This document shows positions 18,119 to 61,462 of a stretch of DNA of 64,000 nucleotides, piece after piece. The notes below the pieces were generated by a model. It worked only from the letters and a program-made list of their open reading frames with translations, searched no databases and was not told the origin of the DNA. Position numbers and translations under genes: made by a program. The stretch covers positions 32,001-96,000 of IMG/VR virus record IMGVR_UViG_2974624810_000001. One strand, given 5' to 3'. The first letter of the stretch is position 1, and the number at the start of each line of letters is the position of its first letter. This DNA is from a virus. Its lineage: Duplodnaviria; Caudoviricetes.

Positions 18119-18349
18119 ATGAATCACAAAGATACTCTAAAAGTAATGGCTCTTAGAGAAAGAATAGCTGAACTTACTGCTGGATATGAAGACAAGATTG
18201 CAGACATTCGTGCCGACTTCACCCTTGCAGTAGAAGAACTTCAAGGGCAGGTAAAGAGGCTCGAAGACGAAAGTCAGCTTCTCAAGGATGCCAACGCTAG
18301 CTATCTTGAAAGGCTTGAAGGCAATGTGGTGGCGACGGAAGAAGGCTAA
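18119..18349 (+). CDS. Coiled-coil hypothetical protein
   Basis: ORF downstream of promoter. Confidence 0.65.
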   Translation: MNHKDTLKVMALRERIAELTAGYEDKIADIRADFTLAVEELQGQVKRLEDESQLLKDANASYLERLEGNVVATEEG

Positions 18350-18770
18350 GCCACTGCCTCCAGTACCCACAGTCCCTGTAGAATATCCTACGGGGACTTG
18401 CGTACAGACGGAGAAGGGAGTGTTCTTCATCAAGGGCAAGTTCAGATTCAGAGTCACATCTGACAGAATCTTGTCTAGCTGGAGATACCCGTTCGTGATT
18501 CGCTCCTCAGAAGAGGCTTGCGCAAAGTATCAAGTGGGTGGTAAGCTCGGATTCCGCCAAGGAACTTTGGTTAAGGATATGTCCAATGGTAAAATATATC
18601 TGATATCAGAGAACCTTCGCAGACAAGTAGTTTCGCCAGATTTCTTTGATGTCATGCTATTCCCTCGTGATGCAGTGATTGAAGCATCTCCAGAGGAGAT
18701 AGCCCTACACAAGGAAGGAGCGAACATAACTTGGCAATCACCCCCTACAAGCCTACGAGCTGGTCAATAG
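18324..18770 (+). CDS. Hypothetical protein with two internal repeats
   Basis: GT.V....G..(F/Y).I repeated twice; start moved to ATG 18324. Confidence 0.65.
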   Translation: MWWRRKKAKPLPPVPTVPVEYPTGTCVQTEKGVFFIKGKFRFRVTSDRILSSWRYPFVIRSSEEACAKYQVGGKLGFRQGTLVKDMSNGKIYLISENLRRQVVSPDFFDVMLFPRDAVIEASPEEIALHKEGANITWQSPPTSLRAGQ

Positions 18771-31658: not shown

Positions 31659-32432
31659 ATGTCTGATGGACTACTAAAGATTGCTCGCCTGGGAAGCAGA
31701 GCAGACTTCGATATCAAGAAGCTGGTAACAGTTCTTGAGGAAGCCTATGTAAATTCCCGGCAGAAGGAAAGATATTCCAAGAAGGTTTCATTCAGTCCGT
31801 CCTCTCTTGGCTATGGTGCCGGTACCTGTCCTAGGTACTGGTATCTGGCTTTTGAGGGCGGAACATTTGTCGATACCTTCGATGGACTAAGTGTCGCCAA
31901 TATGGCAAACGGAACAGCAGCACATACACGCATTGAAAAGCTATTTGGCGATGCGGGAGTGCTAGAAGAGGCAGAAAAGGAAATCACCTATCAGAATCCC
32001 CCAATCAGGGGATTCGTTGATGTTATCGTAGATTTTGAAGGACGAAAGATTGTTGGTGAGTTCAAGACGACTCGCCAGGAATCATATATCCATCGTGAGG
32101 CTAATGGAACAGCCATTGATTATCACAAGGTTCAGGTGCTCATCTATATGCGAGTGCTCGGCCTGAATGATGGATTTGTCCTGTACGAGAACAAGAACAC
32201 TCAGGAGCTTTTCCTTGTACCCATTACAATGAACGAAGCGAATTCAGAATACACCGACTACCTGTTTGAATGGATGCGTGAAGTTCGTAAGCTTTGGGAA
32301 GACAAGACTCTGCCTACCCGACCATTTACAAAGAAGAGTAAGGCGTGCAAGTCATGCGCGCTATTCAATGTGTGTTGGAACGAATCTCCAGAAGGCGACA
32401 TTACTAAGGCACCATTGGAGGTGAAGAAGTAA
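31659..32432 (+). CDS. Cas4-family exonuclease
   Basis: CPR..Y, G...H, G.VD, EFKT, Q..IY, CxxC....C. Confidence 0.85.
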   Translation: MSDGLLKIARLGSRADFDIKKLVTVLEEAYVNSRQKERYSKKVSFSPSSLGYGAGTCPRYWYLAFEGGTFVDTFDGLSVANMANGTAAHTRIEKLFGDAGVLEEAEKEITYQNPPIRGFVDVIVDFEGRKIVGEFKTTRQESYIHREANGTAIDYHKVQVLIYMRVLGLNDGFVLYENKNTQELFLVPITMNEANSEYTDYLFEWMREVRKLWEDKTLPTRPFTKKSKACKSCALFNVCWNESPEGDITKAPLEVKK

Positions 32433-41702: not shown

Positions 41703-41779
41703 TGGGGCGTATACCCTCTGTCTGATAAACAGTTGAAAGGTTAAGTGGTCACATGTGGGTTCAACTCCCACCGTCCCAA
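41703..41779 (+). tRNA. Non-canonical tRNA-Ile(GAT), relocated D-loop
   Basis: Acceptor, anticodon and T arms intact; no D hairpin; AGTGGT lies 3' of the anticodon arm. Confidence 0.75.
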
Positions 41780-52453: not shown

Positions 52454-52529
52454 TTGACAGGCTGATGGACATCAGTTAGACTAGTAACACAGCGCAGGAC
52501 GGAGCGCTTACAACTTATAATCCGTTCAT

Positions 52530-52605: not shown

Positions 52606-52652
52606 CTGGTTGACACAGTCGACCGTATTAGATACAGTAGAAACAACAGCAA

Positions 52653-52806: not shown

Positions 52807-52879
52807 GCGGGTGTCGTCTAGCGGCTAAGGCCCCATCCTTACAAGATGGTCATCGGAGGTTCGAGTCCTCTCACCCGTA
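52807..52879 (+). tRNA. tRNA-Val(TAC)
   Basis: CCATC-CTTACAA-GATGG. Confidence 0.88.
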
Positions 52880-52966
52880 CGAGTCCCCGTCAGAGGCTAG
52901 AGGATGACGACCTACATTCTGACAGCAGTTGGGCACACCATAGTTAGGACAGCCACGAACTGCATT

Positions 52967-53043
52967 GGGTTTGATTGGTATGACGTTAGTGAAAGCCGAC
53001 AATGGACCGCTAACCGCAGAGGGTTCGAATCCCTCCAAATCCA
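52967..53043 (+). ncRNA. tmRNA-TLD-like mini RNA
   Basis: GGGTTTG/CAAATCC-A with G3:U70; stemless D region ending GAC; 7-bp helix; canonical T arm. Confidence 0.65.
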
Positions 53044-53155
53044 CGCTGGAAGGTGATGAGGTGAGAGAAAAGTTGGTCACTCAGTATCTCTGCTCATTAT
53101 GTAAGGTCTAACCAACTATCATACCGGGCTCGGAACCCGGCCCTTCCGTAGACTT

Positions 53156-53230
53156 GCGCCGTTGACGGGAACTGGCATACCTAGTTGACTTAGAATCAAC
53201 TGCTTGGGAGTTCGACTCTCCCACGGCGTA
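53156..53230 (+). tRNA. tRNA-Leu(TAG), short variable region
   Basis: GTTGA-CTTAGAA-TCAAC; 5-nt variable loop. Confidence 0.85.
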
Positions 53231-53400
53231 CTCCATAATTGTAAAGACAGGATGAGATTGTCTGACGAAGAGTGTCCAAAAGGCGGTAATCACGAGTGGA
53301 TGATATGGTCAGGAAAGTTCAGATGTCGAAAATGTGGAACAACAAGTAAGTAACAGTCTGCATAGGTTGTATTAGAAACTTCATGTGCTATGATTAGAAC

Positions 53401-53971: not shown

Positions 53972-54080
53972 AGGAACATAGTTTAATAGGTAAAACCGCG
54001 AAATGCAATGTCGAACGCAGCCTGAACGCTGCTAGTAGATAACAGAGTAGCAATTGTCGGTTCGAATCCGGCTGTTCCGC
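53972..54080 (+). ncRNA. tRNA-like RNA with anticodon arm replaced by a larger domain
   Basis: GGAACA/TGTTCC acceptor, D arm GTTT-AATAGGTA-AAAC, T arm GTCGG-TTCGAAT-CCGGC, about 55 nt between them. Confidence 0.6.
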
Positions 54081-54224: not shown

Positions 54225-54296
54225 GGTCCTTTAGCTGAGATAGATTAGCGATAGCCTGAAAAGCTTTAGAGGTCGGTGCGATACCGTCAGGGACCA
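54225..54296 (+). tRNA. tRNA-Phe(GAA), atypical T loop
   Basis: AGC-CTGAAAA-GCT; T loop TGCGATA. Confidence 0.8.
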
Positions 54297-54378: not shown

Positions 54379-54453
54379 GCCCCAGTATTGGCCCGGCCTT
54401 CTAAGCCAGAGGCGCATAACGGAAAGATGCAGGTTCGAATCCTGTCTGGGGTG
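54379..54453 (+). tRNA. Non-canonical tRNA-Arg(TCT), relocated D-loop
   Basis: GCCCCAG/CTGGGGT; GGC-CTTCTAA-GCC; TAACGGA before T arm. Confidence 0.7.
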
Positions 54454-55076: not shown

Positions 55077-55148
55077 GGGCGATTAGTGTTAATGGTAGCA
55101 CGTCTGTTTTGCAAGCAGATAGAGGGGGTTCGAGTCCCCCATTGTCCA
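55077..55148 (+). tRNA. tRNA-Ala(TGC)
   Basis: TCTGT-TTTGCAA-GCAGA; G3:U70. Confidence 0.9.
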
Positions 55149-59366: not shown

Positions 59367-59442
59367 GCCCTAGTATCCGCTCTGGCTTCGAACCAGTTGA
59401 AACGGTAATGGATACATGTAGGTTCGAATCCTATCTGGGGCA
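59367..59442 (+). tRNA. Non-canonical tRNA-Arg(TCG), relocated D-loop
   Basis: GCCCTAG/CTGGGGC; CTGG-CTTCGAA-CCAG; TAATGGA before T arm. Confidence 0.78.
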
Positions 59443-61216: not shown

Positions 61217-61288
61217 GCATGTAAGCCAGGGATAAGCTAGGCGGGCCTGTAAAGCCCTACCTCGATGGTTCGAATCCGTCTACATGCA
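61217..61288 (+). tRNA. tRNA-Tyr(GTA), atypical, no long variable arm
   Basis: GCATGTA/TACATGC-A; GGGC-CTGTAAA-GCCC. Confidence 0.72.
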
Positions 61289-61387: not shown

Positions 61388-61462
61388 GGTGGCTGTATCA
61401 TAAAAGTAATGTACTAGGCTGTGAACCTAGGTAAGAGGGGGCGGTACCCTCCAGTCACCCCA
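61388..61462 (+). tRNA. tRNA-His(GTG), atypical T loop
   Basis: G-1:C73, encoded CCA; CTAGG-CTGTGAA-CCTAG; T loop GGCGGTA. Confidence 0.82.

Follow-up and report, generated by a model that had tools for sequence, protein, structure and literature searches.

Trans-translation is the main ribosome-rescue and quality-control pathway in bacteria and a drug target. A tmRNA consisting only of the tRNA-like domain (TLD) is known from mycobacteriophage DS6A, whose ssrA (tmRNA Website tmID 11587; Hudson, Lau & Williams 2014, PMC4131195) lies at JN698994 28478-28560 and is of the kind termed ‘standard, no CDS’ (PMC11915505). Just nine sequences of this form are listed in the 2025 tmRNA database (PMC11915505), and DS6A was the only phage TLD-only tmRNA that we found in the searchable literature. 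Two functions have been proposed for the DS6A RNA, namely an SmpB decoy or a tag-less rescue molecule (PMC4131195, PMC11915505). Both papers cite work in E. coli (Mao 2009) in which tmRNA was strongly inhibited by a molecule reduced to the TLD, an effect that titration of SmpB might explain. According to the structural work reviewed in PMC3968760, a TLD fragment binds the ribosomal A site together with SmpB and EF-Tu, and helix H2, comparable to a long variable arm, extends outward along the 30S subunit and touches L11 upon accommodation.

The window, i.e., the whole 64,000-nt stretch of DNA that was analysed, is the segment from base 32001 to base 96000 of a phage genome that measures 131,976 bp and has direct terminal repeats. 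The closest relatives of this phage, among them Bmoc and Anedea, are the Streptomyces BE-cluster phages (Stanwilliamsviridae, Samistivirus). ARAGORN called 33 tRNAs in the array of this phage, with tRNA genes spanning window positions 39525-62738; they include two ordinary tRNA-Ala genes, at 55077 and 58362, as the original prediction had stated. The same prediction described, at 52967-53043, a sequence with an acceptor stem bearing G3.U70 and A73, a stemless D region, a 7-bp helix GTTAGTG/CGCTAAC, and a T arm GAGGG-TTCGAAT-CCCTC, and the DNA reads exactly so. The features of this element, the mini-tmRNA, are collected in Table 1. The gene order Val, element, Leu is preserved among relatives.

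Table 1. Features of the mini-tmRNA gene and its surroundings (window coordinates; in element numbering, G1 = 52967).
Feature	Position	Strand	Evidence or remark
Mini-tmRNA (TLD-only) gene, 77 nt to discriminator A73 (53043) plus encoded C74 (53044); CA unencoded	52967..53044	+	Family covariance model, 98.5 bits
Acceptor stem, 5' strand GGGTTTG; G1 G2 G3 invariant; partner 53036-53042	52967..52973	+	7 pairs
Stemless D-loop analogue AUUGGUA, 7 nt; GG invariant	52974..52980	+	No D stem
H2/P2a helix, 5' strand, element positions 15-25, GAC included; partner 53008-53018	52981..52991	+	All 11 pairs with double-sided changes
Cap: internal loop AAA(G), 3-bp hairpin CCG-ACAA-UGG, A(C)	52992..53007	+	Proposed stub of tmRNA helix P2b
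H2/P2a helix, 3' strand, element positions 42-52, adjoining the T stem	53008..53018	+	Family alignment
T arm GAGGG / UUCGAAU / CCCUC	53019..53035	+	100% paired; both-side changes in 3 pairs
Acceptor stem, 3' strand, and discriminator A73 (53043); U70 at 53040	53036..53043	+	Sequence, family alignment
tRNA-Val(tac), upstream neighbour	52807..52880	+	ARAGORN
tRNA-Leu(tag), downstream neighbour	53156..53231	+	ARAGORN
Promoter-like TTGACA-17-TACAGT, 5' of the tRNA-Glu/tRNA-Val/mini-tmRNA/tRNA-Leu run	52610..52638	+	Consensus match only
Second promoter-like site, TTGACA-17-TAGACT	52454-52482		Consensus match only

The acceptor stem pairs GGGTTTG with CAAATCC (element positions 1-7 with 70-76) and is separated by only 7 nt from the next helix; this D region, ATTGGTATGAC, has no stem. 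The 7-bp helix of the original prediction is present but extends to about 11 pairs (15-25 with 42-52); in the window copy, seven of these are Watson-Crick or wobble pairs, while A17.G50 and C18.C49 are mismatched. The T arm has 5 bp and a 7-nt loop of the GUUCGAAUC type, as expected of a tmRNA tRNA-like domain. The element has neither the D stem nor the 5-bp anticodon stem with a 7-nt loop of a canonical tRNA, and, at 77 nt, it has no mRNA-like domain, tag, or pseudoknots of a full-length tmRNA. Its 3' end, N73-C, is shared by all 33 phage tRNAs and the phage tmRNA, after which the sequences diverge. Since the full CCA is encoded by none of the 33 tRNA genes, the tmRNA, or the mini-tmRNA, all of them depend on a CCA-adding enzyme, and the end of the mini-tmRNA is consistent with common 3' processing followed by CCA completion. 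Single-sequence folding of the element is not significant (z = -1.7; 16 of 200 shuffles were equally good), so the evidence for it is comparative.

The promoter-like sites of Table 1 both lie upstream of two tRNA-Glu genes and match the TTGACA-17-TA(G/C)A(C/G)T type of this phage; four such sites were observed against 1.2 expected by chance in a 1.1-kb stretch. No terminator-like site was found between them and the mini-tmRNA, and the predicted transcription context fits that of the tRNA array. A hairpin, GCAGTT...AACTGC, occupies window positions 52925-52963, immediately 5' of the mini-tmRNA. It is kept in Bmoc, Anedea, LilMartin, and MulchMansion, carries a compensatory double change in Daubenski (GCGATT...AATCGC), and is not shared by the remaining BE subgroups; it may serve in processing or as a spacer. 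Elsewhere in the array, Rfam tRNA matches of 29.5-44 bits that ARAGORN left uncalled occur at window positions 41703-41779, 53972-54080, 54225-54296, 54379-54453, 59367-59442, 61217-61288, and 61389-61459, one of them, of 109 nt, carrying a large insertion where an anticodon arm would be expected. These are further candidate non-canonical tRNA-like genes of the same array.

By BLAST, the element was found in about 80 Streptomyces BE-cluster phage records, annotated in none, and in most of them the match is exactly window 52966-53044. Alignments that include the flanks show that homology ends at G1 and at the C after A73, with unrelated flanks between subgroups. We aligned 23 distinct sequences to a covariance model built from the family and found both-side, compensatory changes in 17 of the 23 base pairs. 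Paired cells amount to 91.5%, as opposed to 36-53% when partners are slid by 1-3 columns, and none of 500 shuffles reached the observed pairing or covariation values. In the acceptor stem, pairs 4:69 and 5:68 change on both sides and 6:67 varies too; G3.U70 is present in 23/23 distinct sequences. With the family model, true members obtain 54-99 bits and no tRNA exceeds 34 bits, and exactly one copy is found per genome. These data bear on whether the element could be a decaying tRNA-Ala or tmRNA pseudogene, or an attP-type ssrA fragment, as might be suspected of a sequence that is unannotated everywhere and misses curated thresholds (ARAGORN does not call it, and no Rfam family matches it at the gathering score). 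Covariation, clean model scores, and a single copy per genome exclude a pseudogene. Compensatory changes affect all three helices, the borders are sharp, the spread among phages is wide, and both acceptor halves are present, unlike in an attP remnant. The covariation contradicts a decaying tRNA-Ala pseudogene, which the original prediction had named as the finding that would count against it, and we regard this explanation as barely credible. On comparative grounds, the element is a real gene, conserved and unannotated, rather than a decaying tRNA.

Coding readings of the locus fared poorly. Overlapping small ORFs, called mechanically, were rejected as genes since the flanks are unconserved and relatives annotate no CDS there. 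A mini-ORF of the form AAG CCG ACA AUG GAx xxx STOP was likewise discarded, with the stop present in 15/23 sequences and six independent lineages without it, as was the GCC (‘resume-like’) frame as a tag frame, which has almost no stops. Of the reading frames that cross the cap, all three were examined on the 23 sequences, and none keeps a stop throughout. Third positions in the hypothetical codons are no more variable than the first two, which argues for a constraint at the RNA level rather than on coding.

In a permissive Rfam scan, the best match of the element was to the tmRNA model RF00023, which it matched end to end, with 306 central positions replaced by 14 nt, at 20.7 bits, outscoring the tRNA model. 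A whole-genome scan with RF00023 gave 29.2 bits for the element, 24.7 for a tRNA-Lys, and 23.6 for a tRNA-Ala; this score alone is undiscriminating, as ordinary tRNA-Ala and tRNA-Lys reach 23-35 bits, and the 20.7-29.2 bits of the element lie below the RF00023 gathering cut-off of 47 bits. The minis of BE relatives score higher (30.8-43 bits), as does DS6A (43.2 bits), and canonical minis in complete phage genomes of 111-175 kb give 80-nt matches of 48.9-65.5 bits, above the cut-off.

When IMG/VR and metagenomes were searched for exact matches to the apical 16-mer, distant copies came up in which nearly all stem positions have changed and the cap is identical, located in a 340-kb phage (G001), in 114-145-kb contigs, and in a provirus fragment; in 596 Gb of genome contigs, the same motif gave chance matches only, in about the expected number. 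Identical-cap metagenomic members (L360, L363, L364) carry GGnUUCGAC and, before the T stem, GGAC. In the window copy, AUGAC and CCGCA stand in place of the junction motifs UUCGAC (5') and GGAC (3'), and the D loop is 1 nt shorter, with AUGA for UUCGA. BE-phage copies have AUGA or AUAA for UUCGA and lack the 3' GGAC, while BE2 relatives carry GUGAC and GGAUA at the junctions. The full junction motifs are found in 54-59 of 90 family sequences, and a pattern fixing only these motifs and the T loop retrieved from IMG/VR at least dozens of RNAs of 76-83 nt built on the same plan. The mini-tmRNA is kept across Samistivirus, Karimacvirus, and unrelated large phages. The RF00023 score above that of the tRNA model, the motifs of the relatives, and the shared architecture with DS6A bear out the proposal of a tmRNA tRNA-like domain without an mRNA domain, and we consider it very probable that the element belongs to a large CDS-less, TLD-only mini-tmRNA family of phages. 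Judged by its junctions, the window copy is a divergent member. Its divergent D loop and junction put it below the Rfam threshold, which explains why it was never annotated; together with the low RF00023 score, they also make SmpB binding less certain for the BE copies than for canonical members.

In a provirus fragment (G004, 18165-18504; L339/L349), the mini-tmRNA adjoins two ordinary tRNA-Ala-like genes with the acceptor GGGGCTG...CAGCTCC. Two mini-tmRNAs of 96 nt (L539:11908-12003 and L557:11235-11330) have an H2 helix of 12-15 bp and may be intermediates between the full and minimal forms.

The ‘16-nt loop’ of the original prediction is correct in length, as 16 nt do separate the helix strands, but it is structured rather than open. 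Behind an A-rich internal loop sits a hairpin of three pairs (C30-G39, C31-G38, and G32.U37) closed by the tetraloop ACAA. All 23 distinct sequences of the subfamily agree in the first 15 nt of this cap and have A or C as its last nucleotide; since the distant identical-cap members came from a search for that very cap, its invariance holds for the subfamily, not the family. A DS6A-type sister group has a related cap, CCG-CA[CU]G-CGG, which is the form in most other phages, and comparison with this group and DS6A yields a common plan: an A-rich 5' side (AAA-G), a 3-bp tetraloop hairpin, and A-N. The hairpin is present in 82/90 family caps against a mean of about 34/90 for shuffled caps, many of the caps having been found by cap-based patterns, and its third pair is G-C, G.U, C-G, A-U, or U-A across the family. 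In the Rfam tmRNA consensus, a 3-nt bulge in the 5' strand and a 1-nt bulge in the 3' strand separate P2a from P2b, a layout matched by the 3-nt/1-nt asymmetric internal loop of the cap. Because of this match, the cap is best read as the beginning of P2b closed by a tetraloop, a homology that we infer from the bulge layout. Similarities of the cap to the resume-codon region and PK1 of the phage tmRNA are short and were made out by eye, and we place no reliance on them.

The cap also bears on whether the RNA might be an unusual decoding tRNA, be it rewired through the pairing TTGGT/GCCGA that the original prediction had offered as an alternative helix, provided with an expanded anticodon loop, or interrupted by a short intron. 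Although G11G12-C31C30 and Y13-G29 are pairable in all sequences, the two outer pairs of that helix fail in 14/23 and show no covariation, and C30 and C31 are taken up by the cap hairpin, in which the third pair shows covariation within the family. A 7-nt anticodon loop is absent, ARAGORN does not call the element, and the Rfam tRNA model scores below 20.7 bits. A decoding tRNA is therefore very improbable, and the alternative helix is not supported.

A search for a full tmRNA elsewhere in the genome, suggested by the original prediction, was rewarding. A 269-nt tmRNA is found at genome positions 96087-96355, 87 nt past the end of the window and about 11 kb downstream of the mini-tmRNA; it scores 106.8 bits on RF00023 and is assigned the tag AESNSAFALAA* by ARAGORN. 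All five BE1 and BE2 relatives tested (5/5) have both genes about 10-11 kb apart, with the full tmRNA at about 96-97 kb (91-96 bits, beside 30.8-43 bits for the mini) and tags ending in ...ALAA. The two also occur together in the 340-kb phage G001 and in G008. Four other complete or near-complete phages, as well as DS6A, have the mini without a full tmRNA, and its occurrence with and without this partner marks it as an independent module. Where the mini-tmRNA sits beside a tmRNA of the phage itself, it is difficult to see its role as confined to the shutdown of trans-translation, which complicates the pure ‘block trans-translation’ reading of the original prediction. In five phage records with the window-type cap, searched with positive controls, no SmpB gene was found, so any SmpB partner of the mini-tmRNA must be that of the host.

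The acceptor stem gives an indication of function. When the acceptor was left unconstrained, G1-C72, G2-C71, G3.U70, and A73 were present in 67/67 distinct members among the matches listed, while pairs 4:69, 5:68, and 6:67 differ freely among the same 67 members through compensatory changes, again among the matches listed. The alanine identity of the family thus appears to be under selection, and charging by AlaRS appears to matter. The invariant G3.U70 and A73 argue that the RNA is more than an uncharged protein sponge. A pure SmpB sponge would only titrate host SmpB and would need neither charging nor ribosome entry; it would suit phages that, having no SmpB gene, meet SmpB as a limiting host factor. 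Yet it would have no use for an alanine identity held constant among covarying neighbours, it would leave the retention of a full acceptor stem and a tRNA-type 3' end unexplained, and it would disable the phage's own tmRNA as well. We rate such a sponge as quite improbable.

The explanation toward which we lean, with some reserve, is that the mini-tmRNA is charged with alanine, depends on SmpB, encodes no tag, and competes at stalled ribosomes with the full-length tmRNA. The mini-tmRNA would be transcribed together with the neighbouring tRNAs, excised by tRNA processing enzymes, and completed to CCA. Host AlaRS would charge it with alanine through G3.U70 and A73, host SmpB would bind it, and EF-Tu would deliver the charged molecule to the empty A site of stalled ribosomes. 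There, it would compete with host and phage full tmRNAs for SmpB and for the ribosomes themselves and, having no resume codon or tag frame, would lower SsrA tagging. Two outcomes can be envisaged: the ribosome may be released, in a tag-less rescue that adds one alanine, or it may be blocked, in a dominant-negative inhibition. We infer each of these steps, from processing and charging through the binding of SmpB and entry into the ribosome to the lowered tagging. The geometry of H2 described above is compatible with a short capped stub that would permit ribosome entry and could not reach the decoding centre. Against competition speaks the fact that a simple competitor would inhibit the phage's own tmRNA too; where both coexist, a shift of balance from tagging to non-tagging, or differently timed expression, would fit. 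The strict conservation of the cap sequence in the subfamily is also unaccounted for by the competitor model.

There are two further readings. The mini-tmRNA could be a working rescue device that is charged with alanine, uses host SmpB, and accepts the nascent chain, so that release or drop-off would free the protein with one extra alanine and no tag. We think this unlikely; if it were true, the phage would possess two rescue channels, a tagging one through the full tmRNA and a non-tagging one through the mini, and the conserved cap would be a dedicated contact with the ribosome or a factor. Somewhat less likely still is a tRNA mimic acting outside trans-translation, for example a decoy or substrate of host defence nucleases that target tRNAs, an alanine donor to a non-ribosomal aminoacyl-transferase, or the partner of another phage RNA-binding protein that recognises the cap. 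The constancy of the cap, on stems that have diverged widely, suggests a specific ligand, the array holds other non-canonical tRNA-like RNAs, and phages with a full tmRNA of their own keep the mini. However, its layout (the D loop, the H2 stub, and the UUCGAC...GGAC of the relatives) is that of the SmpB-binding tmRNA domain, and no conserved neighbouring protein gene was seen, the neighbours being tRNAs. In bacterial Y RNA and YrlA-type mimics, a Ro-binding stem is formed by the termini and the tRNA-like module is internal; here, the termini pair as an acceptor stem ending in N73-C, and the permissive Rfam scan returned no Y-RNA or other family match. On balance, competition with full-length tmRNA remains our preferred explanation.

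The kind of element described here is already known from DS6A, and the decoy and tag-less rescue roles put forward in the original prediction are those commonly proposed for such RNAs. What is new is that a whole, well-sampled group of Streptomyces phages keeps a TLD-only gene alongside a full phage tmRNA, a pairing that is constant in the BE phages. To this, the present analysis adds evidence for selection on alanine identity from members whose acceptor was left unconstrained, the interpretation of the ‘16-nt loop’ as a stub of P2b, and the reason why standard tools miss the subfamily, with Rfam below the cut-off and ARAGORN silent. In infected Streptomyces, the mini-tmRNA probably interferes with the rescue of ribosomes and the tagging of proteins, or short-circuits them, and the BE-cluster phages, on S. 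griseus or S. lividans, offer a tractable system for studying how a phage retunes rescue and tagging in its host.

Among known systems, DS6A is the most similar. Its RNA is likewise about 80 nt long. The acceptor is of the form GGG...UCC-A and includes G3.U70 and A73, the D loop contains GG and has no stem, a short H2 helix adjoins the T arm, the cap follows the plan GAAA-N-CCG-tetraloop-YGG, and there are neither an ORF nor pseudoknots. In its acceptor and its first 21 nt, the DS6A RNA hardly differs from one member with the window-type cap (the L052/G004 provirus). In contrast to the window copy, whose cap has ACAA and whose junctions read AUGAC...CCGCA for UUCGAC...GGAC, DS6A retains UCGAC, closes its cap with a CACG tetraloop, and reaches 43.2 rather than 20.7-29.2 bits on RF00023. 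DS6A is also a 60-kb temperate phage whose sole RF00023 match is the mini itself, whereas the window phage has 132 kb, at least 33 tRNAs, and its own full tmRNA. Full-length tmRNAs (RF00023), including that of this phage, share with the mini the layout of the tRNA-like domain, the alanine identity, the N73-C end, and the first part of helix H2, asymmetric internal loop included, but the mini, at 77 nt as opposed to 269 nt for the phage tmRNA, lacks pseudoknots, a tag, and a resume codon followed by a stop in frame. The CDS-less tmRNAs of jakobid mitochondria and Mallomonadaceae plastids are similarly reduced to about the tRNA-like domain, down to some 65 bp in plastids (PMC3590771; PMC11915505); they differ in reflecting genome reduction of a resident rescue system, not an extra viral gene beside a host system. 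Finally, the engineered TLD fragments (Gutmann 2003; Bessho 2007; Neubauer 2012), as reviewed in PMC3968760, have the same acceptor, D loop, T arm, and looped H2 stub and suffice for SmpB binding and A-site entry. They are artificial and closed by arbitrary loops, whereas the natural family keeps a conserved cap.
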